Positions 7,223 to 33,335 are shown, counted from the first letter of the stretch. The stretch is 64,000 bases of DNA from Acidimicrobiia bacterium (GCA_038240075.1 JBBSEC010000008.1:18-64017), one strand, 5' to 3'. Made by a program: numbers and translations. Notes: a model not told the origin generated them from the sequence alone.

Positions 7223-7254
7223 CCGCGCGGTCGAGCCGCACCCGACTGCGCCGC

Positions 7255-7542
7255 GTGCCTGCCGTCCGTCTCCTGCTGTTTGCCCGGGCCCGTGAGGCCG
7301 CCGGCCGCCGCGACGACGTGGTCGACGCCGCGACGCTCGGTGACCTGCTCGCCGGTGTCCGCGATCGCTACGGGCCCGAGTTCACCGACGTATTGGCCGC
7401 GTCGCGCGTGTGGATCAACGGCGAGGAGCCCCATGATGGCGACGCGACGGTGCTCTCCGACGGAGACGAGGTCGCCGTGTTGCCTCCGGTGAGCGGGGGC
7501 GGCCACGAGTGGGGCCGCGATAGCCTGAAATTCGGCTCGTAA
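7255..7542 (+). CDS. MoaD/ThiS ubiquitin-like (beta-grasp) protein with C-terminal extension
   Basis: LLFARAREAAG, WING, LSDGDEVAVLPPVSGG followed by 13 extra residues. Confidence 0.85.
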   Translation: MPAVRLLLFARAREAAGRRDDVVDAATLGDLLAGVRDRYGPEFTDVLAASRVWINGEEPHDGDATVLSDGDEVAVLPPVSGGGHEWGRDSLKFGS

Positions 7543-18096: not shown

Positions 18097-19000
18097 CCTG
18101 CGCGTCGCCAGCCGGGGGAGCGTGCTGGCGCGGTGGCAGGCGGAGCGGGTGATCTCGCTGCTCGACCGACCCGCGGAGCTCGTGATCGTGTCGACCCGCG
18201 GCGACGAACGTCGCGACGTCGAGATCCACAAGCTCGGTGGAACGGGCGTCTTCGTGAAGGAAGTCGAGCAGGCCGTGCTCGACGGGCGGGCCGATCTCGC
18301 CGTGCACTCCGCGAAGGATCTGCCGTCGACAACCGAAGCCGGTCTCGTGCTCGCCGCGGTTCCCGAACGGGCCGATCCCCGTGACGCGCTCGTCGGCGGC
18401 ACTCTCGCAGGGCTGCCGACGACGTCGCGAATCGCGACCGGGTCGGTACGCCGCCGCGCGCAGCTGGCGGCGGCGCGGCCCGACCTCCAGTTCACGGGAT
18501 TGCGCGGCAACCTGGAGACACGCATCGCGCGCGCCGCCGATGCCGACGTCGACGCGGTTGTCGTCGCGGTCGCCGCGCTCGAGCGACTGGGACGCCTGGA
18601 CGAGGCGACCGAGGTGCTCGAACCCTCGGTGATGCTTCCGCAGGTCGCACAGGGAGCGCTTGCGGTCGAGTGCCGCGCCGATGACGACGCGACGATCGCG
18701 ATCCTCGCGGCGATCGACGATGCCGACGCGCACCGGTGTGTGCTCGCCGAACGCGCGTTTCTCGCCGAGCTGGGCGGCGGCTGCGATCTTCCCGTCGGTG
18801 CGCTCGCGAGCCTCGTCGGCGACGAGTTGATGCTCACGGTGCTGCTCGCGTCGCTCGACGGACGCGTGGTCGTGCGTGCGCACGCGCGTGGCTCCGATCC
18901 GGCCGCGACGGGCCGCGCCGCCGCGGCCGCGTTGCTCGACGGCGCCGGTGGCCGTTCTCTGCTCGAGGCCGCGTTGCCGACGACGCTGCCGGTGCCGTGA
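18083..19000 (+). CDS. hemC: Hydroxymethylbilane synthase
   Basis: SRGSVLARWQ, GVFVKE, AVHSAKD, TGSVRR, LRGN, LGGGC. Confidence 0.96.
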   Translation: MAIPSLRVASRGSVLARWQAERVISLLDRPAELVIVSTRGDERRDVEIHKLGGTGVFVKEVEQAVLDGRADLAVHSAKDLPSTTEAGLVLAAVPERADPRDALVGGTLAGLPTTSRIATGSVRRRAQLAAARPDLQFTGLRGNLETRIARAADADVDAVVVAVAALERLGRLDEATEVLEPSVMLPQVAQGALAVECRADDDATIAILAAIDDADAHRCVLAERAFLAELGGGCDLPVGALASLVGDELMLTVLLASLDGRVVVRAHARGSDPAATGRAAAAALLDGAGGRSLLEAALPTTLPVP

Positions 19001-20466
19001 CCGTCTACCTGGTGGGAGCGGGGCCGGGCGATCCTGGGCTGCTCACGGTGCGCGGCGCCGAGCTGCTCGCGCGTGCCGATGTCGTGGTCCACGACCGTCT
19101 CTCGTCTCCGCTCCTGCTCGACCTCGCGCCGCTCGAGGCGGAACGGATCGATGTCGGGAAGGCGCCGGGCCGGGTCGCGATGCCTCAGGGCGACATCGAC
19201 CGGCTGCTCGTCGAGCGCGGGAAGCGCGGCGAGACCGTGGTCCGGTTGAAGGGCGGCGATCCCTTCGTGTTCGGCCGCGGTGGCGAAGAGGCCGAGGCGC
19301 TCATCGCGGCGGGGGTGCCGTTCGAGGTCGTCCCCGGCGTCACCAGCGCGATCGCGGCACCCGCGTACGCGGGCATCCCGGTCACGCACCGCGGGCTGTC
19401 GACCCACGTCACGATCGTCACCGGCCACGAAGACCCGGCGAAGGGAACGTCCGACACCGACTGGGAAGCGCTCGCGCGCGCGGGCGGCACGCTCGTCGTC
19501 TTGATGGGCGCGGGTCGGCTCGCCGAAGTCGCGGCGCGCCTCATTGCCGGTGGTCGCGCGCCCGAGACGCCGGTCGCGGCGGTGCGCTGGGGCACCCACC
19601 CGCATCAGCGCACGATCCGCGCGACCCTCGCAACCATCGCGGTGCAAGGAGTCGAAGCACCCTCGGCGATCGTGGTCGGCGCGGTGGCGGCACTCGACCT
19701 CGGGTGGTTCGAACGCCGTCCCCTCTTCGGCCGGCGCGTTGTCGTCACCCGCGCGCGCGAGCAGGCGAGTGGATTTCGGGCCCGGCTCGTCGAGCTCGGC
19801 GCCGAAGTGATCGAGCTGCCGGCGATCGCGGTGAAGCCACTCGAGTTCGAGCTCCCGGATCTCGCCGCGTACGGCTGGGTGGTGCTCACGTCGGCCAACG
19901 GCGTCGAGGCCTTCTTCACACATGGTCTCTTCGCACGCGGGCTCGACGCGCGCGCGCTCGCCGGCGTGAAGGTCGCGGCCATCGGGCCGGGAACCGCGAC
20001 CGCGCTCGGACGCTTCGGTGTCCGGCCCGACCTCGTGCCCGAGCGGTTCGTCGCCGAAGCGCTCCTCGCCGCGTTCCCACCGCCGCGCGCAACGGGTGAG
20101 AAGGTGCTCCTCGCGCGCGCCGAGCAGGCGCGCGACGTGCTCCCCGACGGGCTCGCGCGCAACGGATACTCCGTCGACGTCCTCGCGGTGTACCAAACGG
20201 TCACCGCCGAGCCCGATCCGGTCGAGCTCGAGCGGGTACGAGCCGGAGAGTTCGACGCGGTCACGTTCACGTCGTCGTCGACGGTCGACAACTTCTGCCG
20301 GCTCGTCGGCCCCCTCAGCGGCGATCCGATCATCGTGTCGATCGGGCCCGTCACCTCCGCGAGCGCGGCCGCGGCCGGGCTCCGCGTCACGGTCGAAGCC
20401 GATCCCCACGACATCGACGGTCTCGTTACCGCCGTCCTCGGCGTGCTCGGGCCACCGGTAGCCTGA
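18997..20466 (+). CDS. cobA: Fused uroporphyrinogen-III C-methyltransferase / uroporphyrinogen-III synthase (CobA-HemD)
   Basis: VYLVGAGPGDPGLLT, RLKGGDPFVFGRGGEE, then RPLFGRRVVVTRA, TSANGV, FTSSSTV, SIGPVT. Confidence 0.94.
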   Translation: MTVYLVGAGPGDPGLLTVRGAELLARADVVVHDRLSSPLLLDLAPLEAERIDVGKAPGRVAMPQGDIDRLLVERGKRGETVVRLKGGDPFVFGRGGEEAEALIAAGVPFEVVPGVTSAIAAPAYAGIPVTHRGLSTHVTIVTGHEDPAKGTSDTDWEALARAGGTLVVLMGAGRLAEVAARLIAGGRAPETPVAAVRWGTHPHQRTIRATLATIAVQGVEAPSAIVVGAVAALDLGWFERRPLFGRRVVVTRAREQASGFRARLVELGAEVIELPAIAVKPLEFELPDLAAYGWVVLTSANGVEAFFTHGLFARGLDARALAGVKVAAIGPGTATALGRFGVRPDLVPERFVAEALLAAFPPPRATGEKVLLARAEQARDVLPDGLARNGYSVDVLAVYQTVTAEPDPVELERVRAGEFDAVTFTSSSTVDNFCRLVGPLSGDPIIVSIGPVTSASAAAAGLRVTVEADPHDIDGLVTAVLGVLGPPVA

Positions 20467-20470
20467 TCGC

Positions 20471-21451
20471 ATGCCGTTCCCCGAACGGCGCCTCCGGCGT
20501 CTTCGTCGAACTCCCACGCTCCGGCGCCTCGTTGCCGAGACCCGGCTCTCCGTCGACGGCCTCGTCGCGCCGCTGTTCGTGAAGGAGGGCATCGACAAGC
20601 CCGAGCCCATCGCGTCGATGCCGGGCGTGGTTCAGCACACCCAGGAAAGCCTCCGCAAGGAGGTGCACGAGCTGGCCGGCCTCGGCATTCCCGCGGTGAT
20701 GCTGTTCGGGATACCGGCCGCGAAGGACGCGCGTGGCTCGGGCGCCGACGCGACCGACGGTGTCGTGCAGACCGCGGTGCGGAACCTGCGCGACGAGGTC
20801 GGTGACGCGATGGTGCTGATGACCGACGACTGCCTCGACGAGTTCACCGACCACGGTCACTGCGGACTGCTCACCGCCGATGGCCTCGTCGACAACGACG
20901 CGACGCTGGAGCGCTACGCGTCGATCGCACTGAGCCAGGCCGCCGCGGGCGTCGACATCGTGGCGCCTTCGGGAATGATGGACGGGCAGGTCGCGGCGAT
21001 CCGCGCCGCGCTCGACGGTGGCGGATACGAGGCGGTCGCGGTCCTTGCCTACGCGGCGAAGTACGCGTCGGCGCTCTACGGACCGTTCCGCGACGCGGCC
21101 GAGTGCGCACCCCAGTTCGGCGACCGGCGCGGCTACCAGATGGACCCTGCGAACGGGCGTGAAGCGATCGCGGAGGTCGCCGACGACGTCGCCGAAGGCG
21201 CCGACATCGTGATGGTGAAGCCCGCCCTCGCGTACCTCGACGTGATCGCGGCGATCCGCTCGCAGTTCTCGCTGCCGGTCGCGGCCTATCACGTCAGCGG
21301 TGAGTACGCGATGGTGAAGGCCGCCGCGCAGCTCGGTTGGATCGACGGTGAGGCCGTCGCACTCGAGCACCTGGTCGCGATCAAGCGCGCGGGCGCCGAC
21401 ATCATTCTCACCTACCTCGCTCGCGAGGTCGCCGAGCTCCTCCACGGTTAA
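20471..21451 (+). CDS. hemB: Porphobilinogen synthase (Zn-type)
   Basis: RLRRLR, DCLDEFTDHGHCG, APSGMMDG, YGPFRDA, MVKPAL, YHVSGEY. Confidence 0.97.
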   Translation: MPFPERRLRRLRRTPTLRRLVAETRLSVDGLVAPLFVKEGIDKPEPIASMPGVVQHTQESLRKEVHELAGLGIPAVMLFGIPAAKDARGSGADATDGVVQTAVRNLRDEVGDAMVLMTDDCLDEFTDHGHCGLLTADGLVDNDATLERYASIALSQAAAGVDIVAPSGMMDGQVAAIRAALDGGGYEAVAVLAYAAKYASALYGPFRDAAECAPQFGDRRGYQMDPANGREAIAEVADDVAEGADIVMVKPALAYLDVIAAIRSQFSLPVAAYHVSGEYAMVKAAAQLGWIDGEAVALEHLVAIKRAGADIILTYLAREVAELLHG

Positions 21452-21459
21452 AGGCATTT

Positions 21460-22728
21460 GTGAGCGAGCTTTTCGATCGGGCTCTCGCGCGCATCCCCGG
21501 CGGTGTGAACTCGCCGGTGCGTTCGTTCGCGTCGGTGGGCGGGCGGCCGTTCTTCACCGCGCGCGGTGAAGGCGCGTACCTGATCGACACCGACGATCGG
21601 CGCTACGTCGACTACGTGCAGTCGTGGGGGGCGTCGATCCTCGGTCACGCGCATCCGGCCGTCGTCGAGGCGGTGCAGCGCGCCGCAGCCGCGGGCACCT
21701 CGTACGGCACGCCGACGCGCGGCGAGGTCGAGCTCGCGGAGGTCATCTGCGACCGCGTCCCCGGTGTCGAGAAACTCCGGCTGGTGTCGTCGGGAACGGA
21801 AGCCGCGATGACCGCGGTGCGGCTCGCGCGCGGTGCGACCGGGCGCGACAAGATCGTGAAGTTCGCGGGCTGTTACCACGGCCACGCCGACGCGTTGCTC
21901 GTCGCCGCGGGCAGCGGAGTCGCGACTCTCGGGCTTCCGGGCTCGGCTGGAGTGACGAAGGGCGCCACCGCCGACACGATCGTCGTGCCTTACAACGACC
22001 TCGATGCGCTCGACGCCGTCCTCGCGACGCACGGCTCGACCGTGGCTGCGATTCTCGTCGAACCGGTCGCGGCGAACATGGGTCTGGTTGCGCCCGCACC
22101 GGGGTACCTCGACCGACTCCGCGCGCGCTGCACCGCGGCCGGCGCGCTGCTCGTCTTCGACGAGGTGATCACCGGCTTCCGTGTCGGTCCGGCCGGAGCA
22201 CAGGGCCGCTTCGGGGTGCGCCCCGATCTCTCGATCTTCGGCAAGGTCGTCGGCGGTGGGCTGCCGCTCGCCGCGCTCGGCGGACCCACCGCGATCATGG
22301 ACGAGCTCGCGCCGCTCGGGGCCGTGTACCAGGCCGGCACTCTGTCGGGGAACCCGCTCGCGACCGCGGCCGGCCTCGCGGTGCTCGCCCGCCTCGATGA
22401 GGCCGCGTTCACCGAGTTGGAGTCGAAGGCCGAGCGGCTCGAGCGCAGTCTCCGCGACGCGTGCCGCGCCGCGGGCGTCGCGGCTCAGGTCACGCGGGTG
22501 CACACGCTCGTGGGGCTGTTCTTCGCGGCGGCCACGGTCGTCGACTACGAGCGCGCGAAGGCGGCCGACCACGATCGGTACGCGCGCCTGTTCCACGGCC
22601 TGCTCGACCGCGGCGTCTACTTTGCGCCGAGCGGCTACGAGACGTTGTTCGTCTCGCTTGCACATGACGACGTCGCCGCCGAGGCGACGGCAACCGCCGT
22701 GTTCGACGCGCTGTCGCAGCTCGGGTAA
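21460..22728 (+). CDS. hemL: Glutamate-1-semialdehyde 2,1-aminomutase
   Basis: PGGVNSPVR, SGTEA, GCYHGH, FDEVITGFR, GKVVGGGLP, YQAGTLSGNP. Confidence 0.97.
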   Translation: MSELFDRALARIPGGVNSPVRSFASVGGRPFFTARGEGAYLIDTDDRRYVDYVQSWGASILGHAHPAVVEAVQRAAAAGTSYGTPTRGEVELAEVICDRVPGVEKLRLVSSGTEAAMTAVRLARGATGRDKIVKFAGCYHGHADALLVAAGSGVATLGLPGSAGVTKGATADTIVVPYNDLDALDAVLATHGSTVAAILVEPVAANMGLVAPAPGYLDRLRARCTAAGALLVFDEVITGFRVGPAGAQGRFGVRPDLSIFGKVVGGGLPLAALGGPTAIMDELAPLGAVYQAGTLSGNPLATAAGLAVLARLDEAAFTELESKAERLERSLRDACRAAGVAAQVTRVHTLVGLFFAAATVVDYERAKAADHDRYARLFHGLLDRGVYFAPSGYETLFVSLAHDDVAAEATATAVFDALSQLG

Positions 22729-22824
22729 CGCTCGCCTGCTCAGTCCTTTACACGGTCGCATGCTCGCTCGACTGGGCGTGCGCTCCGGCCGAGAACTCAG
22801 CTGAACGCTCGCCTGCTCAGTCCT
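22727..22824. repeat. 21-bp direct repeat (aacgctcgcctgctcagtcct) flanking a 56-bp insert; 77-bp period
   Basis: Exact copies at 22727-22747 and 22804-22824 between two convergent stop codons. Confidence 0.85.
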
Positions 22825-23068
22825 CGCCGGTCCGGCGCCTGCGCACGCGGTCCATGTAGAAGAGGGAGGCCGCGAACAAACCGCACATGATCGCGAACGC
22901 CACGAACGCCGCCGCGCCCTGGTCGGATGCGTCGATGGGCTGCGGTGCGACGGCACCCGCGGGCACCGCCGAGGCGAGCAGCGCGAGCAGCGACGCCATC
23001 GCGAGGAGCGGGTATCGGAGCGTGCGGAGCTTGATCGACGGTCGGGTCATCAACGGTTCGTTCCTCAT
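22817..23068 (-). CDS. Small membrane protein, last gene of the Rieske/cytb operon
   Basis: Signal-like helix plus C-terminal TM followed by RVRRRR; ATGA overlap with the upstream gene. Confidence 0.6.
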   Translation of the reverse strand: MRNEPLMTRPSIKLRTLRYPLLAMASLLALLASAVPAGAVAPQPIDASDQGAAAFVAFAIMCGLFAASLFYMDRVRRRRTGED

Positions 23069-23877
23069 GTCGCCGGCACGGGGCTCTTCGCCAACCGCTG
23101 CTTCTCGCGCTCGCGCTCACGCTCGTCGAGCTCGTACCAGTGCAGGCCGAGCATGCTGATGACGAAGAGGATGATCGAGCCGAACAGGTAGCAGACCGGT
23201 GGCAGGCGGGTGGAGCCGAAGTCGTACTCGAGCACGGCAACCTTGCGCGGGATGTCGGGGTCGCACTTCGGTAGCGGAGGCTTCTGACCGAACGGAACGG
23301 TCTGCACGAGCGCAACGCAGTACTGCACCGCCGCGTACTCGGGCTTGTGCCAGAAGTAGCGGTTCGGCTCACCGCCGACCTGGTACGTGCGCAGGTTCTG
23401 TGTCGGGTCGTCGGTGATGTACTGCAACCCGCTGTCGAACTGCGCGAACGGTTGCACCTTCGGCTTGGCGCCCGGCAGCGTGACCGCCCGCACGAACGCG
23501 CTGTCGAGGAAGGATCGGATGGTCGTGGCGGTCTGCGGAATCAGCAGCGATCCTTGTTGCGCGATATTACGGATCGCGGGGATCTTCGCGTCGGTGAACG
23601 AGGTGTCGACCTCGACCGCCTTCCACGCCGCAGCCCGGCCCTTGGGGCTCTCGAGCGGTGTGCTCGTCGTGAGCCACAGGGTGCTGAGCAGCACCATGAA
23701 GCCCGTCAGTGCCGCGGCCGCGACCAGGAACCCAAGCCGCGCCCCGAGGTTGGTCGAGAGCAGCAGGTAAGCCGATCCGCAGAACAGGAACACGCCCGCG
23801 ACGGGAGCGAGGATGCCGATGATCGTCGGATCCCACAACGTGTTCGAGGCGGCGAGGACGAGGGCGAGGTGCATCAC
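23065..23877 (-). CDS. Membrane protein of unknown function in the Rieske/cytb operon
   Basis: Two N-terminal TMs, a soluble domain with Cys residues, a C-terminal TM; GGAG SD; tight spacing. Confidence 0.75.
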   Translation of the reverse strand: MMHLALVLAASNTLWDPTIIGILAPVAGVFLFCGSAYLLLSTNLGARLGFLVAAAALTGFMVLLSTLWLTTSTPLESPKGRAAAWKAVEVDTSFTDAKIPAIRNIAQQGSLLIPQTATTIRSFLDSAFVRAVTLPGAKPKVQPFAQFDSGLQYITDDPTQNLRTYQVGGEPNRYFWHKPEYAAVQYCVALVQTVPFGQKPPLPKCDPDIPRKVAVLEYDFGSTRLPPVCYLFGSIILFVISMLGLHWYELDEREREREKQRLAKSPVPAT

Positions 23878-23883
23878 AGGCTC

Positions 23884-25119
23884 CTAGAACTTCGCGCCGG
23901 GATAGTCGACCGCTTCGAGCTTGTCAGTGGTCTTGTCGAGCCCTTCACGTTCGTACGTGACGATCTCGGTGATCTGCTCCTTCGTCAACAGCACACCGAA
24001 TCCTGGCATCCGGCCGGTACCGACTCCGTTGTTGCCGTACGGGGCTTCGAAGTCGGAGCCGAGTGACACGAACGCGATCTGCTGGGCGAGGCCGGCTCCG
24101 TTCGCGTTGTCGGAGAAGCGCGCGAGCTCCTGACTCAGGTCGGGGCCGAACGCGCCGCCGCCCGGCTGTTCGATCACGTTCTCGGGTTTCATGCCCGTCG
24201 ACGGATCGAACACCGACCAACCCATGGTGTGACACCGGGCGCAGTTCACCTCGAACAGGAGTTGTCCTTGGGACACGTTTTTTCTTCGGGCCGACCAGTC
24301 TTCGGCCCAGCTCAGCGCGCTCTGGGCATCGGTGACGGCAGTGTGTGCGGTCGTGACGTCGACCGCGGCGGCCTTGGGGTTGTCCTCGACCTTGATGAGA
24401 TTCTTCTGTGCGGCGGTGAGCGCTTCCTGCGCCGCCTTGAGCTGCTGGGACGGTTCGCCGGCGTACGCCGCGAGCGCATCGTTCGACTGCTTGCGTGCCT
24501 GTTCCGGAGTCAGCTGCCGTGACTTGATGTACGCGACGAGGTCGTTGATGCTCTGCACGTTCTTCGGGCCGCCTCCTGCGACACCCCACGGCTGCATCGG
24601 GGTCCCGGGCCGCCCGTACGTGATGATCTGGTTGACCTCTTGCGGCGAGAAGCGCAGCAGCACCGTGTTGAGTGCCGGTGCTCTCCACGGCACGAGGTTG
24701 CCGCTCTTGTCCTTGAAGATGTGTGCGACGCTGGTCGAGCCGCCACCGAGATCGGTGCCGTGGCAGTTGGCACACTGCAGCGACTTCGCCTGGTCGTACG
24801 CGGTCATCTGGTTGTTCGCGAACAGCGTCGCGCCGCGCTCGACGGCACCGCTGCTGAAGTAGTGCGCCGACTCGTGCTGGCGGTTGGGCTCGCGCAGCCA
24901 GTAGATCGGGAGCGCGACCGCGACGAGCGCGGCGAAGAACAGCGTCCAGCCGAGCACGCGCTCGAGGTGCGGGCCTTCGAGGGTCTCGTCGTCGTGGAAC
25001 ACCGCGAGGTTTTGCGGCGTGTGGGTTTCGCGGGTGCGCTTGACCGACACGATCGCGAAGATCGCGAGTGCCAGCAGCGCCGCGAGATTGATCACGACGA
25101 GAACATTGCGAACGCTCAT
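23884..25119 (-). CDS. Membrane-anchored diheme cytochrome c
   Basis: CANCH and CARCH heme motifs, candidate distal Met in PGTPMQPW and GRMPGF; two N-terminal TMs. Confidence 0.9.
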   Translation of the reverse strand: MSVRNVLVVINLAALLALAIFAIVSVKRTRETHTPQNLAVFHDDETLEGPHLERVLGWTLFFAALVAVALPIYWLREPNRQHESAHYFSSGAVERGATLFANNQMTAYDQAKSLQCANCHGTDLGGGSTSVAHIFKDKSGNLVPWRAPALNTVLLRFSPQEVNQIITYGRPGTPMQPWGVAGGGPKNVQSINDLVAYIKSRQLTPEQARKQSNDALAAYAGEPSQQLKAAQEALTAAQKNLIKVEDNPKAAAVDVTTAHTAVTDAQSALSWAEDWSARRKNVSQGQLLFEVNCARCHTMGWSVFDPSTGMKPENVIEQPGGGAFGPDLSQELARFSDNANGAGLAQQIAFVSLGSDFEAPYGNNGVGTGRMPGFGVLLTKEQITEIVTYEREGLDKTTDKLEAVDYPGAKF

Positions 25120-25172
25120 GACGATCTCCCGTCGGGATCAGTCATGACGTGCGCACACGCGATGTGGTGCAT
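25116..25172 (-). CDS. Putative 18-aa bridging mini-ORF (MHHIACAHVMTDPDGRSS)
   Basis: GGGAGG just after the Rieske stop, ATG at 25172, TGA overlapping the cytochrome c ATG (ATGA). Confidence 0.3.
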   Translation of the reverse strand: MHHIACAHVMTDPDGRSS

Positions 25173-25181
25173 GCCTCCCTC

Positions 25182-26030
25182 TCAGCCAACGCAGTGCGGG
25201 CCTTCTGCCACTTGTCCGGTCGTGTTGGTGCCGATGGGCGGGCCCACGGAGAGCAGCCCGGTGTTGATGCTGACAGCACCGCCGGAGATGAGCGCCTGGA
25301 AACGGTCGAGACCGCGTGGTGCCGGCCCGTCGCGCTTCTCGCCCACCCGGTTGTACTTCGAGCCGTGGCAGGGGCATTCGAACCACTGCGCCGACTGGCA
25401 CCACGGGACTCGGCAGCCGAGGTGCACACACTTCTGGTACAGGGCGACGATGCCCTGCTCCATGCCGGCGTAGATGTAGTCGTCGTAGATCTTCTTCGCG
25501 TTGGGCAGCGCGTTCGCGGGATACGGCTGGATGTAGGTCCGCGCCTCGGGAACGTAGAACGGCTGCAGGTTGGTCGCCATGAACGAGGTGATGTCGGACA
25601 GCTTCCCGGCCGCGATCGTGCCGCCGAAACCGCCGCTGCTCGACGGCCAGAGGAACGCAAGCAGGCTCGCCCCGAAGGTGCCGAGCGCGGCGAGCACGGT
25701 GACGAGGATCCCGCGGTTGAGGAACTGCCGGCGGGTGACACCGAGCTCTTCCGGGTCGACCGGTTCCCAGACGACCGGGGTGGAGCCCCGGCGCTTCGCG
25801 AGCCCACCAGCGGCCTGCGCGCGCGCGTCGTCGGCGCGCCCGCGCGCCTCGGCACTGAGCTCGAGCTCGGTACCCGTGGCGGCGTCGTTGCCCTTGGGGT
25901 CGGTGCTCGCGTCGCGGCTCAACGTCTCGCGGCTGAGGTTCCCGGTTGCGGAGCGCTGCCGGTTCGCGAGCAGGAAGAGGCTGGCGAGTGCGATGAGGAT
26001 GACGATGACGATCGGGATGACGACGATCAC
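25182..26030 (-). CDS. Rieske [2Fe-2S] subunit of a Rieske/cytochrome b complex
   Basis: CVHLGC and CPCHGSKY boxes, GPAPRGL, internal twin-arginine VTRRQFL plus TM. Confidence 0.93.
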   Translation of the reverse strand: MIVVIPIVIVILIALASLFLLANRQRSATGNLSRETLSRDASTDPKGNDAATGTELELSAEARGRADDARAQAAGGLAKRRGSTPVVWEPVDPEELGVTRRQFLNRGILVTVLAALGTFGASLLAFLWPSSSGGFGGTIAAGKLSDITSFMATNLQPFYVPEARTYIQPYPANALPNAKKIYDDYIYAGMEQGIVALYQKCVHLGCRVPWCQSAQWFECPCHGSKYNRVGEKRDGPAPRGLDRFQALISGGAVSINTGLLSVGPPIGTNTTGQVAEGPHCVG

Positions 26031-26039
26031 GATTTCTCC

Positions 26040-26942
26040 TTAGAGCTCGAAGAAGACGTGGTCGTTCCACGGGAAGGTGAAGTTGAAGCCCTGCCCACGG
26101 AAGAACGAGCCGATGATGACGAGGATCGACCAGAACATGAGGAACACCGTGAAGATGCAGATCGCGAACTTTCGGTCGCTCGGCTTGTGCGACGGGTTCT
26201 TGTCTGCGTACGGGGCGATCATGAGCAGGCCGAGTGCGATGCCGGGGATCGTGACGCCCGCGACCATCGGCGTGAACATGGTGAGGAGCTCCTGGAGCCC
26301 GAGGAAGTACCACGGTGCCTTCGACGGGTTCGGCGTCTGGTTCACATCGGCGAGGCCGAGCAACGGCGCCTTCACGAGCGCGGAGAAGATCGTGAGGAAC
26401 GCGGTGACCGACAGGATCGACGCGAACTCGATGACGAGCAGGTGCGGCCAGACGTGCACCTTGTCCTGCGCGTCGGCACGCGTCTGCTGGATCGATCCCG
26501 ACTTGACGACCGTGAGGAGCCGCTGGGTGTGACCGCCGGGCCCGGTGCCGCTCGGCGCGGGTGCGGTCGCGGCAGCCGCGCGCGGCAGCGTCGCGGTCGC
26601 GGTGCCGCCTCCGCCTGCAGGGGCTGCACCGCCGCCACCACCGGCGAGCGCGGCCTTGCGCTTGCGCGAGCGCTCGAGCAGCGCGGCGGGGACACCACCG
26701 ACGCTTTCGGTGATGACTTCGCCCGCGTCGGCACTGGCGGCGACGGGCGCGGCCTCTTCCGCCGGCACGGTCTCGCCGCCGGCGTCGGCGACGGGCGCGG
26801 CCTCTTCCGCCGGCACGGTCTCGCCGCCGGCGTCGGCGACTTCGGCCGCGGGCGCGTCGTCCTCTTCGCCGTCGACGGGGAGGCCGAGCGCCTTGCGGCG
26901 TTCGCGGCTGCGCTTGAGGAGATGTTCGGGTACTTCGGCCAT
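26040..26942 (-). CDS. Cytochrome b6f subunit IV (PetD)-like protein with long acidic/Ala-rich N-terminal extension
   Basis: VWPHLL, APL...A...TPNPSKAPWYFLGLQELL, 3 TMs, PYADKNP. Confidence 0.88.
   Translation of the reverse strand: MAEVPEHLLKRSRERRKALGLPVDGEEDDAPAAEVADAGGETVPAEEAAPVADAGGETVPAEEAAPVAASADAGEVITESVGGVPAALLERSRKRKAALAGGGGGAAPAGGGGTATATLPRAAAATAPAPSGTGPGGHTQRLLTVVKSGSIQQTRADAQDKVHVWPHLLVIEFASILSVTAFLTIFSALVKAPLLGLADVNQTPNPSKAPWYFLGLQELLTMFTPMVAGVTIPGIALGLLMIAPYADKNPSHKPSDRKFAICIFTVFLMFWSILVIIGSFFRGQGFNFTFPWNDHVFFEL
26738..26840. repeat. In-frame 48-bp tandem repeat (ADAGGETVPAEEAAPV x2)
   Basis: Identical units at 26738-26785 and 26786-26833 plus a 7-bp tail. Confidence 0.9.
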
Positions 26943-26958
26943 GGTGCTCCTTCCGGCC

Positions 26959-27762
26959 CTACAACGGTCCGGAGATGCCGCCGTCCTTGCGGACGCGCCA
27001 GAAATGGACGGCCATGAAGATCACGATCACAAAAGGCAGCATCAGTACATGAAGTACGTACCATCGCAGCAATGTGTCGTTGCCGATCTCCTTGGAACCC
27101 AGCAGCACGAAGCGAACCTGGCTGCCGAAGACCGGGGTGTAGCCCATCATGTTGGTGCCGACGGTGACGGCCCACAGCGCGAGCTGGTCCCACGGGAGCA
27201 GGTAGCCCGTGAAGGAGAGCAGCAGCGTGAGCGTGAGCAGGATGACGCCGATCACCCAGTTGAACTCTCGGGGCGCCTTGTACGCGCCGTGGTAGAAGAC
27301 GCGGCTCATGTGCAGGAACACCGTGAGCACCATGAGGTGCGCGGCCCAGCGATGCATATTTCGCACGAGTGAGCCGAACGTGACCGCGGTCTCGAGGTTC
27401 TGCACCGTGCTCCACGCGTCGGCCGCGGTCGGGCGGTAGAAGAACATCAAGAAGATGCCGGTGACGGTGAGCAGGATGAAGAGGAAGAACGAGAGGCCGC
27501 CGAGGCACAGCGTGTAGGAGACCTTCACCGCGTGCCGCTTCACCTTCACGGGGTGAAGGTGAAACAGCACGTTGTTCATGATCACGTACGAGCGGTTCCT
27601 GGGGCTGTCGGTGTAGCCCTTGCGGTAGATCGATCCCGGCCGGAAGATCGAGTTCCACGCCTGGGAGCCCTGCAGCTTGTCGCCGAGCTCCGAAGCGCGC
27701 GCGCTCACCTTGACGCCGAGCCCACCCGATCCGTTGCCGTTGCTGCCGTTCCCGTTGGCCAC
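26959..27762 (-). CDS. Cytochrome b6 (PetB)-like N-terminal cytochrome b
   Basis: TLCLGGLSF, RNMHRWAAH, FLHMSRV, PREFNW, TGYLLPWDQ, YVLHV..LP, VHFWRVRKDGGISGPL; GTG at 27762 after GGAGA. Confidence 0.93.
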   Translation of the reverse strand: MANGNGSNGNGSGGLGVKVSARASELGDKLQGSQAWNSIFRPGSIYRKGYTDSPRNRSYVIMNNVLFHLHPVKVKRHAVKVSYTLCLGGLSFFLFILLTVTGIFLMFFYRPTAADAWSTVQNLETAVTFGSLVRNMHRWAAHLMVLTVFLHMSRVFYHGAYKAPREFNWVIGVILLTLTLLLSFTGYLLPWDQLALWAVTVGTNMMGYTPVFGSQVRFVLLGSKEIGNDTLLRWYVLHVLMLPFVIVIFMAVHFWRVRKDGGISGPL

Positions 27763-27770
27763 GATGTCTC

Positions 27771-28184
27771 CTAGAAGCGCACGCCGTAGGCGTAGCCGTG
27801 CCGGTTGGTGCGGACATTGGGATCGCCTTCGGCCCAGTCGTTGGTGACCTTGCCGAGGATGATGACGCCGGTCGGGCAGCGGTCGACGCAGAGCGCGCAG
27901 CGCGTGCACACGTCTTCGTCGACGACGAAGAACACGTGGTCCTTCGGGTCGTCGCCCGGGCGGTCCGCGTTGACGGAGTCGTCGATCGCGTCGACCGACA
28001 ACATGTGGATGCACTTCCACGGACAGATGTCGACGCAGCCTTCGCAGAGGATGCACTCGGCCTGGTCGATGTGCAGGAACTGCTTCGGCTTCACCGCGGA
28101 CGTGAGCCACGACGGATCGACCTCTTGCAGCACGTAGTCGGCTGCGAACTCCGGCATCGGCGGATTGGCGTCGTTACGCGGCAT
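27771..28184 (-). CDS. 2x[4Fe-4S] ferredoxin
   Basis: CILCEGCVDICP and CTRCALCVDRCP; acidic linker. Confidence 0.92.
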   Translation of the reverse strand: MPRNDANPPMPEFAADYVLQEVDPSWLTSAVKPKQFLHIDQAECILCEGCVDICPWKCIHMLSVDAIDDSVNADRPGDDPKDHVFFVVDEDVCTRCALCVDRCPTGVIILGKVTNDWAEGDPNVRTNRHGYAYGVRF

Positions 28185-28190
28185 CGCGCG

Positions 28191-28709
28191 TCACACCTTC
28201 GCCGTCATGGGTCGCCCGTACGCCGACGTTCCCGCCGGGTCCGACTCGCTTGACGCCGCGCCGTCGTCGGACAGGGGTGCCGCGACCGGACGTCGCTGCC
28301 AGATCTGGAAGAGCCTGATGTTCAGGGTGAGCATGACGACGTAGATGACGGCCGCGATCGCGTCGTTGGCTGTCTGCTTGTTGACGTCGAAATGAACGAA
28401 GCGGTTCCTCTGGAACACGTACTTCGCGGTGCCCCACCGCAGGTACGAGTTCGCGTAGACGATCCACTCGTGCGGGATCGTGCCGTACGCAACGATCATC
28501 AGCGAGAACGCGGCCAGTGCACCGAGCATCGCCTGCGCCCACGTCGGGGGCTCGGCCGGCTTCGGGCGCCGCGCGAGAAATCCGATCACGGCCAGCCCGA
28601 TGAGGAGGATCACGACGGCCCAGATCAGACGGCCGGCGGCATGCGTCCACGACATGTTGAAGCCGAGCACGCTCTTGGGAAGAGGGTTGGGAATGTGCAC
28701 CGCGAGCAT
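28191..28709 (-). CDS. 3-TM membrane protein, first gene of the Rieske/cytb operon
   Basis: TWAQAMLGA..YGTIPHEW..W, C-terminal TSAYGRP; GGGGAG SD. Confidence 0.75.
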   Translation of the reverse strand: MLAVHIPNPLPKSVLGFNMSWTHAAGRLIWAVVILLIGLAVIGFLARRPKPAEPPTWAQAMLGALAAFSLMIVAYGTIPHEWIVYANSYLRWGTAKYVFQRNRFVHFDVNKQTANDAIAAVIYVVMLTLNIRLFQIWQRRPVAAPLSDDGAASSESDPAGTSAYGRPMTAKV

Positions 28710-28834
28710 TGGACGCTCCCCGATCTCCTCTGTCCGTGGAGATGATTGCTACCACGCTAGATGAGGCGTGGGCACATTGTTGAACAGGGCCCGCGACGGG
28801 CGCGTTGCGCGTTCCGGATCATGGGCGTGGGAGC

Positions 28835-30130
28835 ATGAGCACAACCGCCCTGTCGTCCGCGAACGGACGCGTGATGCACGAACGCACAAGCGATCGCTAC
28901 GACGTTCTCGTGATCGGCGCGGGACCGTCGGGCGCGGCTGCGGCCTACTGGCTCGCGGAGCGGGGACGGCGAGTGCTTCTCGTCGAGAAGAAGCGGTTCC
29001 CGCGCGAGAAGACGTGCGGCGACGGCCTCACGCCGAGAGCCGTGCGCCAACTGCACGACATGGGTCTCGCCGAACCGCTGTCGGAGTTCCATCGCTTCGA
29101 CGGGCTCCGGTCGATTGCTCACGGCGTCACCCTCGAGCTCGCGTGGCCCGACCATCCCGACTTCCCCGGCTACGGCTATGTCGTCCGGCGCAGCGAGCTC
29201 GACCAGATGGTGGCCGAGCGCGCGGTGAAGGCGGGGGCGACCCTCTGGCCCGCGAGCGAAGCGATCGGGCCGGTGCTCGAGCGCGGGATCCTCGACGGCG
29301 CGGTGGTCCGGCGGGCCGACACCGGCACGACCGAGGTCGTCCGGGCCCGGTACGTGATCGTCGCCGACGGGGCCAACTCGCGCTTCGGCCGGGCGCTCGG
29401 CACGGTCCGGGACCGCAGCTTCCCGCTCGGCATGGCGATTCGCGGCTATTTCACCAGTCCGTACCACGATGAGCCCTGGATCGAGAGCCACCTCGACCTC
29501 CGCGACCGTGACGGGAACCATTTGCCAGGGTATGGGTGGATTTTTCCGGTCGGCGACGGCACGGTCAATGTCGGCGTCGGGCTCCTCTCCACCTTCCGCG
29601 GCTGGAAGGACGTCAACACCTCCCACCTGATGGAGGCCTTCTGCGAGACCGCGCCGGCCCGGTGGGGCATCGGGCCCGACACGGCCACCTGCGCACCGAC
29701 CGGCGGGAAGCTCCCCACCGGCACCTCGATCCACCCCACCGTCGGACCGAACTTCGTCGTGGCCGGCGACGCCGCAGGCACCGTCAACCCGTTCAACGGC
29801 GAGGGCATCTCGGTCGCGTACGAGACGGGACGGTTGGCCGCCGATGCCGTCGACCTCGCGCTGGCGACCGACGACGGCCTCGCGCTGCAGACCTACACCG
29901 AACGCCTCGACGAGGTGTACGGCCTCTACTTCAAGGTCGCGCGCACCTTCGTGACCGCCATCGGCAACCCCGCGGTCATGCGCGAGCTCACGCGGGTCGG
30001 GATGCAGAGCCGACCGCTGATGGAGTGGGTGCTGCGCATCATGGCGAACCTGCTGCGGCCCGACGAGATCGGGCCCGCCGAGGCGGCGTACAAGATCGTC
30101 GAACGCCTGGTCGCGCTCAGCCCCGTCTGA
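28835..30130 (+). CDS. Geranylgeranyl reductase-family FAD oxidoreductase (MenJ-like menaquinone side-chain reductase)
   Basis: DVLVIGAGPSG, FPREKTCGDGLTPRAV, ADGANS, GYGWIFP, GDAAGTVNPFNGEGI; upstream of nuoA as in streptomycetes; start uncertain. Confidence 0.85.
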   Translation: MSTTALSSANGRVMHERTSDRYDVLVIGAGPSGAAAAYWLAERGRRVLLVEKKRFPREKTCGDGLTPRAVRQLHDMGLAEPLSEFHRFDGLRSIAHGVTLELAWPDHPDFPGYGYVVRRSELDQMVAERAVKAGATLWPASEAIGPVLERGILDGAVVRRADTGTTEVVRARYVIVADGANSRFGRALGTVRDRSFPLGMAIRGYFTSPYHDEPWIESHLDLRDRDGNHLPGYGWIFPVGDGTVNVGVGLLSTFRGWKDVNTSHLMEAFCETAPARWGIGPDTATCAPTGGKLPTGTSIHPTVGPNFVVAGDAAGTVNPFNGEGISVAYETGRLAADAVDLALATDDGLALQTYTERLDEVYGLYFKVARTFVTAIGNPAVMRELTRVGMQSRPLMEWVLRIMANLLRPDEIGPAEAAYKIVERLVALSPV

Positions 30131-30197
30131 CCAACGGTTCTGACCCCGCGGCCCGCCCTTCGACCCGCGACTGCCCGCGGGCGATACGCTCCGACCC

Positions 30198-30674
30198 GTG
30201 AACGATTACTTGCCGATCGTCTTGATGATCGGCCTCGTCGTCGCCTTTGCCGGCCTGTCGTTCGTCGCGTCCGGGCTGCTCGGCACGCAGGAGCCCAATT
30301 CGGCCAAGCAGGCCCCGTACGAGTGCGGGATCGTGCCCGAGGTCGAGCCCGCAGAGCGCTTTCCGGTCAAGTTCTACCTGGTTGCCATGGCGTTCATCGT
30401 GCTCGACGTCGAGATCGTGTTCCTCTATCCCTTCGTCACGGTGTTCCGACAGCTCGGGCTGTTCGGCCTCGTCGCGATGGGTGTGTTCGTCTTCGGGCTG
30501 CTGGTGCCGTTCGCGTACCTGCTGTCGGTCGGCGCGCTCGCATGGGGACCGGTCCAGCGACGCGTCTCGGCTGGTATCGGTCCGCTGCGCCGCTCGGCGA
30601 TCGCGGTCTTCGATCCGACGCCGGCGAACGCGGCCACGGCGCCGATCGCGAGCCCGGAGCACGAAGCCGCCTGA
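30198..30674 (+). CDS. nuoA: NADH-quinone oxidoreductase subunit A (cluster 1)
   Basis: [25 protein letters not shown]; leaderless TACGCT-N7-GTG. Confidence 0.95.
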
Positions 30675-30688
30675 GGGCGGGCGCCACC

Positions 30689-31216
30689 ATGGGTCTCGAG
30701 CAGGTCAGCCACAACTTCCTCACCGCTCCGCTCGAAGATCTCGTGCGCTGGGCCCGCCGCAACTCCGTCTTTCCCGCGACGTTCGGCCTCGCGTGTTGCG
30801 CGATCGAGATGATGGCTGCCGGCGCCGCGCACTACGACCTCGCGCGCTACGGCATGGAGGTCTTCCGCGCCAGCCCGCGCCAGGCCGACCTGATGATCGT
30901 CGCCGGACGCGTGAGCAACAAGATGGCCCCGGTCCTCCGTCAGGTCTACGACCAGATGGTGGAGCCCAAGTGGGTGATCTCGATGGGGGTCTGCGCGAGC
31001 ACCGGTGGAATGTTCAACAACTACGCGATCGTGCAGGGCGTCGACCAGATCGTGCCGGTCGACGTCTATGTCCCGGGCTGTCCACCCGGACCTGAGACCC
31101 TCATGCACGGCATCCTGACCCTGCACGACATGATCCGCACCGGTGAGCTCATGAAGCGTCGTGAGACCACCCCGCACGGCGGTGCGGGCGTGACGCTCGA
31201 GCCCGCTTCCGCCTGA
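30689..31216 (+). CDS. nuoB: Complex I subunit B (cluster 1)
   Basis: [27 protein letters not shown]. Confidence 0.96.
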
Positions 31217-31261
31217 GCCTGCCGACCGTCCGACAATCGCTCGAGAACCCCTTCAAGAACC

Positions 31262-31846
31262 ATGGCCGACGAAGTTCGTGAACCAGATCACGAGGGCGAG
31301 CCGGAAGCACCCGCGCCCCCGCGACCTGTTGAGGACCGACCGTCCGACGAAGTCGCGGCCGCGTTGTGCGACCGCTTCGCCGACGCGATCTTCTTCGAGT
31401 CGCACGGGCAGAGCGTCGTCTACCTCGACCGGGCGCACCTCGCCGACGCAGGTGGGTACCTGCGCGACGACGAGCAGTTCACGATGTGCGTCGATGTCAC
31501 GGCCGTCGACCATCTCGTCGACGGCGTGCGTCACGCCGCGCCGGGTGTCGCTCCTGAGCGCTTCGAAGTCGTCGCGAACTTCCTCTCGCACACGCGCAAC
31601 CGCCGCATCCGTTTGATCTGCGAAGTACCGGAGTCCGACCCGTCGGTGCCGTCGCTCACCGGCGTGTATCCGGGCACTGACTTCGCCGAGCGCGAGGTGT
31701 TCGACTTGTTCGGGATCCGCTTCGACGGTCACCCCGATCTCACTCGCATCCTGATGCCGGACGACTGGGTCGGTCACCCGTTGCGCAAGGACGATCCGTC
31801 CGCGCGCGTCCCCGTCACCTTCAAGGGCGATCCGAGGCCGCGATGA
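31262..31846 (+). CDS. nuoC: Complex I subunit C (cluster 1)
   Basis: EREVFDLFGIRFDGHPDLTRILMPDDWVGHPLRKD. Confidence 0.95.
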   Translation: MADEVREPDHEGEPEAPAPPRPVEDRPSDEVAAALCDRFADAIFFESHGQSVVYLDRAHLADAGGYLRDDEQFTMCVDVTAVDHLVDGVRHAAPGVAPERFEVVANFLSHTRNRRIRLICEVPESDPSVPSLTGVYPGTDFAEREVFDLFGIRFDGHPDLTRILMPDDWVGHPLRKDDPSARVPVTFKGDPRPR

Positions 31847-31947
31847 GCGAGCAGACGGAAATACGCGTCGTGAAAGCGACATCCGGCCCAGTCGCGAGCG
31901 GGGCCCGAGCGGCCCGGCGCCGCAGGCGCCAGGAGCGGGAACGATGA
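31843..31947 (+). repeat. MIRU-like insertion encoding a 34-aa ORF that bridges nuoC and nuoD
   Basis: ATGAGCGA duplicated at 31843 and 31944; ORF MSEQTEIRVVKATSGPVASGARAARRRRRQERER has ATGA overlaps at both ends. Confidence 0.75.
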
Positions 31948-33335
31948 GCGACGAGCTCGCGGGCGTCACCGACCCGAACGTGCTCGACCCGAGCGAGGAC
32001 GCGATCGCCGAGCCGATCGGGTCGCAGGAAGCCGCGGCCGACCACCCGTTCCACCGCGTGCCCGCCGACGAGGCCCGCCTCGAGCGCCAGACCGGCGAAG
32101 GCGCGCAGGAGTTGCGCACGCGTGAGCGCGAGATCGTGATGACCGGTGGCACGTGGCCGGTCGACGAGCTCGGCGACACGATGGTCATCAACATGGGGCC
32201 GCAGCACCCGTCGACCCACGGCGTGCTGCGCATCATGATGGAGCTCGACTCCGAAGAAGTCGTGCGCGCGAAGGCGATCATCGGCTATCTCCACACCGGG
32301 ATGGAGAAGACCGGCGAGGAGCTCACGTACGTGCAGGGTGCGACCAACGTCACGCGCATGGACTACGCGTCGCCACTCTCCAACGAGCTCGTGTACGCGA
32401 CGGCCGTCGAACGGTTGCTCGATCTCGAGGTTCCCGAGCGCGCGACGTGGATGCGCATGATGCTCGTCGAGCTGAATCGCATCTCGTCGCACCTGCTGTT
32501 CCAGGCCACGAACGGCATGGACATCGGCGCGGTGTCGATGATCATCTACGGCTGGCGTGAGCGTGAGGAAGTTCTCCGCCTCCTCGAGTCGATCACCGGC
32601 CTGCGCATGAACCACGACTACATCCGAGTTGGTGGAGTCGCCGCCGACCTGCCCGACGGCTGGCGTGAACACGTTCTCAACACGATGGACATCGTCGAAG
32701 CCGGGGTCGCCGAGTACGACGCGCTCCTCTCGGAGAACCCGATCTGGTTGGAACGCACCGTCGGCATCGGCGCGATCACGACCGAGGAGTGCATTGCGCT
32801 CTCGATCACGGGCCCGATCCTGCGCTCCACCGGATTCGCCTGGGATCTGCGCAAGGCCCAGCCGTACCTTGCGTACGACGACGTCGACTTCGACGTCATC
32901 TTCACCGAGAACGGCGACGTCTTCGACCGCTACCGCATCCGGCTCTACGAGATCCTCGAGTCGGTGAAGATCGTCCGCCAGTGCGTCGCGAACATGCCCG
33001 GCGGCGACTACCGCGTGCAGGATCGGAAGGTCACACCGCCGCCGCGTGCTCGCATCGACGAGTCGATGGAGGCGTTGATCCACCATTTCAAGCTCTTCAC
33101 CGAGGGTTTCAAGGTCCCAGCCGGCGAGACGTACACGGCGGTCGAGTCGCCGCGCGGTGAGATCGGTTGCTACATGGTGAGCGACGGTTCCGGGAAGCCG
33201 GTGCGCATGCACATCCGCGGTCCCTCGTTCTACAACCTGCAGGCGATGGGACCGATGGTGCGCAACAGCCTCGTGGCCGACGCGGTTGCGATCGTGTCGA
33301 GCATCGACCCGATCCTGGGGGAGGTCGACCGCTAA
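31944..33335 (+). CDS. nuoD: Complex I subunit D (cluster 1)
   Basis: NMGPQHPSTHGVLR, GYLHTGMEK, RMDY, ESPRGE, GEVDR. Confidence 0.96.
   Translation: MSDELAGVTDPNVLDPSEDAIAEPIGSQEAAADHPFHRVPADEARLERQTGEGAQELRTREREIVMTGGTWPVDELGDTMVINMGPQHPSTHGVLRIMMELDSEEVVRAKAIIGYLHTGMEKTGEELTYVQGATNVTRMDYASPLSNELVYATAVERLLDLEVPERATWMRMMLVELNRISSHLLFQATNGMDIGAVSMIIYGWREREEVLRLLESITGLRMNHDYIRVGGVAADLPDGWREHVLNTMDIVEAGVAEYDALLSENPIWLERTVGIGAITTEECIALSITGPILRSTGFAWDLRKAQPYLAYDDVDFDVIFTENGDVFDRYRIRLYEILESVKIVRQCVANMPGGDYRVQDRKVTPPPRARIDESMEALIHHFKLFTEGFKVPAGETYTAVESPRGEIGCYMVSDGSGKPVRMHIRGPSFYNLQAMGPMVRNSLVADAVAIVSSIDPILGEVDR

Follow-up and report, generated by a model that had tools for sequence, protein, structure and literature searches.

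A b6f-like Rieske/cytochrome b operon with a conserved, linked ferredoxin gene in Acidimicrobiia

Split cytochromes b that carry a CxGG motif are known from the deep-branching Actinobacteria Rubrobacter, Conexibacter, Patulibacter and Ilumatobacter, where they belong to an APWY clade without a characterized member as of Kao and Hunte 2014 (PMC4122944), and cytochromes b of subfamily G are found together with large NAD(P)-binding Fe-S proteins (Dibrova et al. 2017, PMC5600118). We analyzed a 64,000-nt stretch of DNA, hereafter the window, from an Acidimicrobiia bacterium (GCA_038240075.1 JBBSEC010000008.1:18-64017; positions are counted in the window), in which a Rieske/cytochrome b operon of this type also encodes a ferredoxin. 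Open reading frame (ORF) calling returned eight minus-strand ORFs at 22817-28709, with the same coordinates as the original prediction. In operon order they are g1, ferredoxin, b6, subunit IV, Rieske, cytochrome c, g7 and g8, separated by successive intergenic gaps of 6, 8, 16, 9, 62, 6 and -4 nt. The gene order, the split b6 and the alignment of the haem-ci cysteine, all claimed in that prediction, were borne out by the ORFs, by Pfam and by alignment to solved b6 proteins. Here we report that the ferredoxin gene is conserved next to b6, and propose that its product may serve the complex as a third electron port.

The locus resembles the APWY clade and subfamily G in its split b6 and subunit IV, its CxGG and APWY motifs and its deep-branching actinobacterial host, and it is assigned to them by these motifs (PMC4122944, PMC5600118). 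The usual motif in those papers is WCMGG, whereas the window's orthologs carry LCLGG, FCLGG or YCLGG; in the portions cited, the papers cover cytochrome b and Rieske proteins and mention neither a stand-alone ferredoxin nor g1- or g7-like partners (PMC4122944, PMC5600118). Similarly, we found no description of a stand-alone ferredoxin or of g1- or g7-like conserved partners of the actinomycetotal complex in full-text literature, supplements lying outside the search. Thus the split CxGG cytochromes b of the APWY clade were known already, and the ferredoxin, g1 and g7 appear to be undescribed as their partners.

Four other systems bear comparison. The locus shares with the cytochrome b6f complex the equivalents of Cys35 and Arg207 and the four-histidine pattern, and the best solved relatives of its b6 and Rieske proteins are b6f subunits. 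In contrast to b6f, its c-type subunit is a class-I-like dihaem protein rather than cytochrome f, its host lacks photosystems, its b6, subunit IV and Rieske proteins carry long cytoplasmic extensions, and its ferredoxin is encoded in the operon rather than being a diffusible visitor. With the actinobacterial QcrCAB (bcc) complex it has in common the phylum, a dihaem cytochrome c and a role in passing electrons from menaquinol through cytochrome c to an aa3-type oxidase; unlike QcrCAB, it has a split cytochrome b with the haem-ci cysteine and is not encoded beside cta genes. The Geobacter ExtOPQ system (Rieske, cytochrome b and membrane protein) has the same cytochrome b subtype according to the NCBIfam ExtP model. 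The Geobacter cluster, as described in part of its report, includes multihaem cytochromes, a porin and a rhodanese-like protein but no ferredoxin (PMC5877670); no multihaem cytochrome, porin or rhodanese-like gene is present among the eight window genes or their immediate neighbors.

The fourth comparison is with the anammox complexes Kuste4569-4573 and Kustd1480-1485, in which, too, a haem cN-containing, b6-like cytochrome b is combined with a Rieske protein of high-potential type and an FwdF-related [4Fe-4S] subunit on the n-side (PMC12954380); for the window ferredoxin the n-side position is a deduction. The window ferredoxin differs in having two clusters, 137 amino acids and no FAD/NAD(P) domain, a domain that is present at a second cluster in the same genome (see below). 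In addition, the window's subunit IV has three helices and not five, its c-type partner is a dihaem protein rather than a multihaem or hydroxylamine oxidoreductase (HAO)-like one, and its host is an aerobe for which this is the only complex III.

Linkage of the ferredoxin gene to the cytochrome b core

The ferredoxin gene (27771..28184, minus strand) encodes a cytoplasmic 2x[4Fe-4S] ferredoxin of 137 amino acids, of the polyferredoxin/NuoI type, which matches the Pfam Fer4 families and in whose translation two CxxCxxCxxxCP motifs are visible. We assessed its neighbors by tblastn in two sets of loci. The b6-selected set consisted of 15 kb around 40 b6 hits, picked for family spread and long contigs and blind to what lay beside them. 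The ferredoxin-selected set consisted of the 80 best genome loci by ferredoxin profile, with denominators that count the loci with room for the gene in question. We found the ferredoxin gene immediately upstream of b6 in 39 of the 40 b6-selected loci, and b6 adjoined the ferredoxin gene downstream in 67/70 ferredoxin-selected loci. Subunit IV, Rieske and cytochrome c followed b6 in this order in 39/40 b6-selected loci, the contig of the fortieth ending early, and the full core was present in order in 54 of 60 ferredoxin-selected loci. The six misses comprised three stand-alone ferredoxins, two loci without a detectable subunit IV match and one misplaced low-complexity match.

The protein is conserved along with its position. 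All eight cysteines were invariant across 40 sequences, which ranged down to 31% identity to the window ferredoxin, and the same sequences shared conserved N- and C-terminal extensions, including an invariant DY..L..VD..WL...VKPK before the first cluster. By profile, the closest solved relatives are FwdF/MvhB polyferredoxin modules, with NuoI weaker. The family is narrow: a library of 1.84 billion sequences yielded 589 representatives at E<=1e-3. Named homologs come from Acidimicrobiia, Acidimicrobiales, Iamiaceae, Microthrixaceae and Ilumatobacteraceae, including the isolate Salinilacustrithrix flava, and the 80 best genome loci are all labelled Acidimicrobiia or Actinomycetota, bar a few odd labels of metagenome-assembled genomes. 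Four genomes with other cytochrome b types contained no ortholog of the ferredoxin (0/4), only weak generic 4Fe-4S matches. The window's own genome has a single copy.

Core subunits and their role in the host

The b6 gene (26959..27762, minus strand) encodes 267 amino acids and matches PF00033 (E 1.8e-47). Its start is most likely the GTG at 27762, as a longer ORF to 28110 would overlap the ferredoxin gene in another frame. The protein has a four-helix core, the haem-ci motif LCLGG and a cytoplasmic N-terminal extension of about 80 residues. Among solved structures it comes closest to the cytochromes b6 of chloroplasts and cyanobacteria (E 5.7e-51), none being closer than cyanobacterial b6. 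In the alignment to these structures, the cysteine of LCLGG falls on Cys35 of the b6 motif YCLGG, and the four haem-b histidines and Arg207 also match; Arg207 of b6 holds a haem-ci propionate (PMC5600118). In 41 b6 sequences, C86, L87, G88, G89, H137, H151, H238, H253 and R258 were invariant, as were H68, H70 and H77 of the N-terminal extension. Among 40 sequences the motif read LCLGG in 23, FCLGG in nine and YCLGG in eight. Covalent binding of haem ci to b6 is predicted.

Subunit IV (26040..26942, minus strand; 300 amino acids; PF00032) is encoded as a separate ORF 16 nt from b6, so that the cytochrome b is split between a PF00033 and a PF00032 protein. Its C-terminal, PetD-like membrane part carries the APWY motif of the quinol-oxidizing (Qo) site and Glu172 within WPHLLxxE. 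We found KAPWY in 38 of 39 orthologs and KAHWY in one, in place of the PEWY of b6f/b6c-type complexes. WPH...E was likewise present in 38/39, and the Glu172 column was invariant in the alignment. Profile-to-PDB alignment placed the tryptophan of WPHLL on PetD residue 32 and E172 at or next to PetD Phe40, a position at which a glutamate has been reported as an axial ligand of low-potential haem ci (PMC12954380). The N-terminal 150 residues are of low complexity, with two E(I/V)PEHLLKRS-like motifs conserved within the class. The stretch encoding this region contains an exact 48-nt tandem repeat (26738-26840; 2.1 copies, 100% match), which duplicates ADAGGETVPAEEAAPV.

The Rieske [2Fe-2S] protein (25182..26030, minus strand; 282 amino acids; PF00355) consists of an extra N-terminal helix, a cytoplasmic loop of ~75 residues, RRQFL, a membrane helix and a cluster domain with CVHLGC...CPCHGSKY. 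Its closest solved relatives are b6f PetC proteins (E 1.6e-15). Box II read C-x-C-H-G-S-x-Y in 38 of 39 orthologs, that is, with the serine and tyrosine of high-potential Rieske proteins. The cytochrome c (23884..25119, minus strand; 411 amino acids; PF13442 and PF00034) is a dihaem protein with an N-terminal membrane anchor and with CANCH at 116 and CARCH at 293; two CxxCH motifs were present in 34/39 orthologs, and sequence searches found no solved relative. The NCBIfam models for QcrB, QcrA and QcrC gave 119, 19 and 24 bits, all far below their cut-offs of 500, 275 and 200.

To place the operon in its host phylum, we searched b6 against 401 sampled genomes, the window's own included, of which 261 had some cytochrome b match at E<=1e-20. 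The best 150 b6 matches, at 66-100% identity, came from the window's genome and about 147 of the other 400, a figure that includes twelve unpublished genomes and becomes about 135 without them. Within the same class, a b6 ortholog (at least 66% identity) was present in 28 of 30 genomes. The framing of this operon as an oddity is thus overturned: in Acidimicrobiia, as in several other families of Actinomycetota, it is the standard complex III. The original prediction had also noted that QcrCAB and cta genes are absent from the window. This held, and in the genome as a whole, which is 94% complete, there are only two cytochrome b genes (PF00033), neither of them QcrB-like. The genome further contains one COX1 (haem-copper oxidase), one cytochrome bd and two 2-oxoacid:ferredoxin oxidoreductase alpha-type genes, and no reaction-center gene of type I or II (PF00124 or PF00223) was found in it. 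Since there is no QcrB-type cytochrome b and no reaction center, and one haem-copper oxidase, we conclude that the locus is the host's housekeeping complex III, feeding that oxidase. Its substrate would be menaquinone, because of a MenJ-like neighboring gene and the chemotaxonomy of the class.

An anammox-type paralog, proposed electron routes and competing explanations

A second Rieske/cytochrome b cluster, of anammox-like architecture, is present in the window's genome on contig C92 (locus L003, 1426-5115). Its order is a GltD-like protein of 604 amino acids, an unsplit cytochrome b of 458 amino acids, a Rieske protein and an acyl-CoA dehydrogenase, with no cytochrome c gene adjoining. The 604-residue protein joins a GltD-like NAD(P)H/FAD part to a C-terminal 2x[4Fe-4S] domain, and its stop codon overlaps the start of the cytochrome b gene. 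We found that the window ferredoxin is 39% identical (E 6e-14) to this C-terminal domain over the whole cluster core, and that both have the same long insert between the two cluster motifs. Proteins of ~600 amino acids with this GltD-like plus Fe-S architecture recur among more distant relatives of the ferredoxin. The C92 cytochrome b is 50% identical to b6 over the N-terminal half, the 80-residue extension included, and also has APWY. In it, SFRLG replaces LCLGG and WPHLLVRH replaces WPHLLVIE; the haem-ci cysteine and the subunit IV glutamate have therefore been lost together. Of H68, H70 and H77, the paralog retains only His68.

In models of Kuenenia complexes made with AlphaFold 3 (AF3), one NAD(P)-reductase subunit with four FwdF-related Fe-S clusters sits under the cytochrome b dimer on the n-side axis (PMC12954380). 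The models further predict an additional haem b to which the N-terminal region of each cytochrome b contributes a histidine ligand, and reduction of NAD(P)+ by the low-potential branch is discussed for the anammox complexes (PMC12954380). Because of its homology to the Fe-S domain of the C92 flavoprotein, the window ferredoxin resembles the membrane-proximal Fe-S part of a stalk of this kind, present as a separate gene, and b6 His68 could be a candidate for the ligand of the proposed interfacial haem.

We propose that the operon encodes a complex III that runs a Q cycle and binds, on its n-side, an Fe-S subunit serving as a third electron port, a reading on which we stand evenly balanced. Menaquinol would be oxidized at a Qo site to which b6, subunit IV and the Rieske protein all contribute. 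One electron would pass from the Rieske protein to the membrane-anchored dihaem cytochrome c and on to the single haem-copper oxidase, and the other would cross the membrane through the two b haems to the quinone-reducing (Qi) site, which would contain haem ci. The ferredoxin, bound on the cytoplasmic face, would then provide a third port from bH/ci to the cytoplasm, beside an intact Q cycle. We retain the Q cycle because the Qi features (Cys86, Gly88/89, Arg258 and subunit IV Glu172) are invariant. The cytoplasmic face is elaborate, with the 80-residue extension of b6, the 150-residue extension of subunit IV, the 75-residue Rieske loop and the conserved tails of g1 and the ferredoxin; the extra segments of b6, subunit IV and Rieske resemble a docking platform. 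A more detailed version, in which the ferredoxin lies under the b6 dimer and exchanges electrons with bH/ci, possibly through a His68-ligated interfacial haem, is possible but doubtful.

Electron transfer through the ferredoxin, exchange with haem ci included, may run in either direction. We slightly favor exit, as overflow or as bifurcation-type reduction of a low-potential acceptor, although this preference is tentative. The combination of a high-potential-type Rieske protein with menaquinone has been argued to push the b haems to very low potential (PMC12954380). Given the high-potential box II, and if the quinone is menaquinone, the b haems would be unusually low and exit of electrons to an Fe-S cluster would be feasible; this way of deriving potentials from motifs comes from work on a different organism. 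Entry, from the Fe-S clusters through ci to menaquinone, we rate as possible and no better than doubtful. An electron passing from a reduced cluster to ci and menaquinone runs steeply downhill, and the two 2-oxoacid:ferredoxin oxidoreductase genes indicate that the cell makes reduced ferredoxin, which supports this direction.

Several points weigh against a bound ferredoxin port. Transfer from bH/ci to a typical [4Fe-4S] cluster against the membrane potential would be uphill unless the haem potentials are unusually low, and Pfam found no flavin or NAD(P) domain in the operon proteins. What suggests that the ferredoxin, g1 and g7 bind the complex is linkage together with homology. The ferredoxin is acidic (pI 4.5) and has no membrane segment, like soluble ferredoxins. 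In one b6-selected locus (L038, G164:C1:2716256-2731256), g1 lies directly before b6 and the operon is kept, but the ferredoxin gene is gone. No ferredoxin ortholog was found anywhere in this genome (G164; one contig, 95% complete), the best match, of 29.6 bits, lying elsewhere, and its b6 nevertheless retains every invariant residue and motif. Three of the 70 ferredoxin-selected loci, from close relatives (L047, L048 and L049, at 7001-7414 in each), contain an extra, stand-alone ferredoxin gene, 88-91% identical and far from any cytochrome b gene, next to genes for a secreted repeat protein, a pirin-like protein and an Fpg/Nei-like protein; these genomes keep a normal g1-ferredoxin-b6 operon, with its own ferredoxin, elsewhere. 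The stand-alone copies would fit a detachable protein. Finally, fusions of the ferredoxin to b6 had to be rejected as Rosetta-stone evidence: database fusions are singletons, many of them visibly frameshifted. Two (P0299 and P0286) look like clean fusion proteins, but in each of the 77 complete metagenome loci that are related to P0299, one of them 99% identical, a stop codon separates the two genes.

Three side observations concern the ferredoxin and its junction with b6. In a marine clade and in others (L125-L204, metagenome loci), the two genes share a reading frame with a single stop between them. This pattern is enriched because the loci were ranked with a fused query, and only two (L023 and L029) of four suspect loci translated from the unbiased set had a shared frame and a single stop; readthrough between the genes was accordingly rejected, the fused-query ranking explaining the pattern. 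A complex prediction with two b6 (20-267), two subunit IV (135-300) and one ferredoxin, made with alignments and without g1 or g7, scored 0.08 and 0.01, and we used it neither for nor against binding. The G164 lineage offers a natural control for the function of the ferredoxin.

The ferredoxin might instead be co-transcribed with the complex without being a stable subunit, as a soluble ferredoxin or as a maturation or assembly helper, in which case g1 and g7 might be assembly factors. The ferredoxin's acidity and lack of a membrane segment, its stand-alone second copies beside retained operon copies, its loss from an otherwise unchanged operon in G164 and the lack of any fold or family clue for g1 and g7 all fit this explanation. 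We nonetheless consider it unlikely, given the strict linkage to b6 across lineages in which ferredoxin identity falls to 31%, the conserved terminal extensions, which a plain carrier would not need, the homology to a domain that is covalently part of the n-side subunit of the paralogous complex, and the conserved cytoplasmic segments of b6, subunit IV and Rieske that resemble a docking platform.

A distinctly unlikely alternative is that of a dedicated bifurcating enzyme of anammox type, without a Q cycle, in which every second menaquinol electron would pass through bH/ci and the ferredoxin to yield a low-potential reductant, with the high-potential branch providing the drive. Such bifurcation has an analogue in what was proposed and modeled with AF3 for Kuenenia (PMC12954380), and the window has an Fe-S module homologous to the one in the NAD(P)H-flavoprotein subunit, a box II of high-potential type (38/39 orthologs) and the APWY motif common to the anammox-type clade. 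Its b6 H68, also present in the paralog, could match the proposed interfacial haem ligand. Against this, the Qi-site features (haem-ci cysteine, Arg258 and subunit IV Glu172) are invariant, the operon contains no flavoprotein, and G164 keeps the complex without the ferredoxin. In addition, no other quinol oxidase that reduces cytochrome c was found in this aerobe, which has a single haem-copper oxidase, and dropping the Q cycle would halve its proton yield.

It is very improbable that the complex is ExtOPQ-like or runs in reverse, passing electrons on from cytochromes of the periplasm to the quinone pool or serving extracellular or selenite reduction. The b6 does score above the cut-off of the NCBIfam model cytb_ExtP, an ExtP equivalog named "selenite/tellurite reduction operon b-type cytochrome" (308 versus 290 bits), and reverse operation was suggested for APWY complexes by Kao and Hunte (PMC4122944). 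However, the ExtQ model gave 49 bits, below its cut-off of 150, the operon lacks the multihaem cytochromes and porin described for Geobacter (PMC5877670), whose cluster lacks a ferredoxin, and the host's oxidase needs a forward complex III. A photosynthetic-type b6f running cyclic electron flow with ferredoxin, the "cyclic flow" of the original prediction, is scarcely credible, even though, among solved structures, b6f subunits come closest to b6 and Rieske and some orthologs have YCLGG: it is refuted, as far as 94% completeness allows, by the missing reaction-center genes, and the operon has no cytochrome f and has APWY, not PEWY, at its Qo site.

Accessory genes, neighborhood and significance

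Three of the operon genes (g1, g7 and g8) encode proteins with no Pfam or NCBIfam match. The first gene of the operon, g1 (28191..28709, minus strand), encodes a three-helix membrane protein of 172 amino acids without a family. Its AlphaFold2 (AF2) model has a mean predicted local distance difference test (pLDDT) score of 81, with helices at 19-46, 57-88 and 111-138, and W57, A60 and P79 are invariant in its alignment. By tblastn, g1 lies directly upstream of the ferredoxin gene in 73 of 76 ferredoxin-selected loci, and it gave a match in 18/40 b6-selected loci, nearly all of the same class. In 11 of 11 loci of other lineages that were checked by eye, a small membrane ORF occupies the position of g1 and aligns weakly with it.

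The g7 protein (23065..23877, minus strand; 270 amino acids; no family) starts with helices, continues with a mixed alpha/beta domain that lies on the outer side, and ends in a long helix. Its AF2 model has a mean pLDDT of 80, and a VIA-wide fold search returned generic helical matches only (Z about 8). It was detected by tblastn in 32/40 b6-selected loci and in 56 of the 59 ferredoxin-selected loci with room. For g1 and g7 alike, Foldseek found nothing in the PDB at E<=0.001, and the protein atlas matches were unannotated Actinomycetota clusters only. A ferredoxin and unknown genes that are not conserved with the core had been named as what would speak against the original prediction; the ferredoxin, g1 and g7 proved to be conserved, and that objection falls away.

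The last gene, g8 (22817..23068, minus strand; 83 amino acids), overlaps the g7 stop by 4 nt and encodes a protein whose N-terminus resembles a signal sequence and which has a hydrophobic stretch at the C-terminal end. It was detected in only 2/40 b6-selected loci and in 12 of 58 ferredoxin-selected loci with room, and its membership of the complex is doubtful. The prediction of an eight-gene operon therefore stands as to the eight ORFs, which are real, and the conserved set consists of seven genes.

The operon is flanked by hemD/hemB/hemL on one side (18736-22728) and by a MenJ-like gene and nuoA-D on the other (28805-33335). In 13 of 40 related loci hemL is found no more than a few kb from the operon, and in many relatives within the Acidimicrobiia nuoA follows g7 immediately. 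The MenJ-like (geranylgeranyl-reductase-like, GGR) gene at 28805-30130 was considered as a flavoprotein partner of the ferredoxin and rejected, since its matches are to MenJ/GGR family models and it accompanies the nuo genes. A promoter and terminator scan gave no promoter-like site and five terminator-like sites against 3.2 expected, nothing usable. In two loci of other lineages, multi-helix ORFs upstream of the operon (L025, 959-1705; L043, 1445-2844) resemble membrane proteins of cytochrome c maturation (Ccm-type) by eye.

Contact between haem ci and ferredoxin in b6-type complexes has been debated for twenty years, and in chloroplasts the partner, being diffusible, is difficult to trace. 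Here, a candidate partner of haem ci is encoded in the operon and conserved with the complex through many families. The operon occurs in cultivable aerobes such as Salinilacustrithrix flava, and Ilumatobacter is listed by Kao and Hunte (PMC4122944); an operon-encoded partner in such organisms makes the haem ci-ferredoxin question testable without interference from photosynthesis. Automatic annotation would probably misname b6 as a "selenite/tellurite reduction" protein and the ferredoxin as NuoI/PreA-like, naming that hides the probable main complex III of Acidimicrobiia. The locus also ties the anammox complexes to an everyday respiratory enzyme, with a flavoprotein version and a ferredoxin-only version in the same genome. 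If the reading as a complex with three electron ports is true, quinol oxidation would be coupled to the making or burning of a low-potential cytoplasmic reductant, and the operon would encode a respiratory, genetically hard-wired form of the path from ferredoxin to haem ci debated for b6f, as well as a minimal version of the bifurcation that anammox complexes are proposed to carry out.

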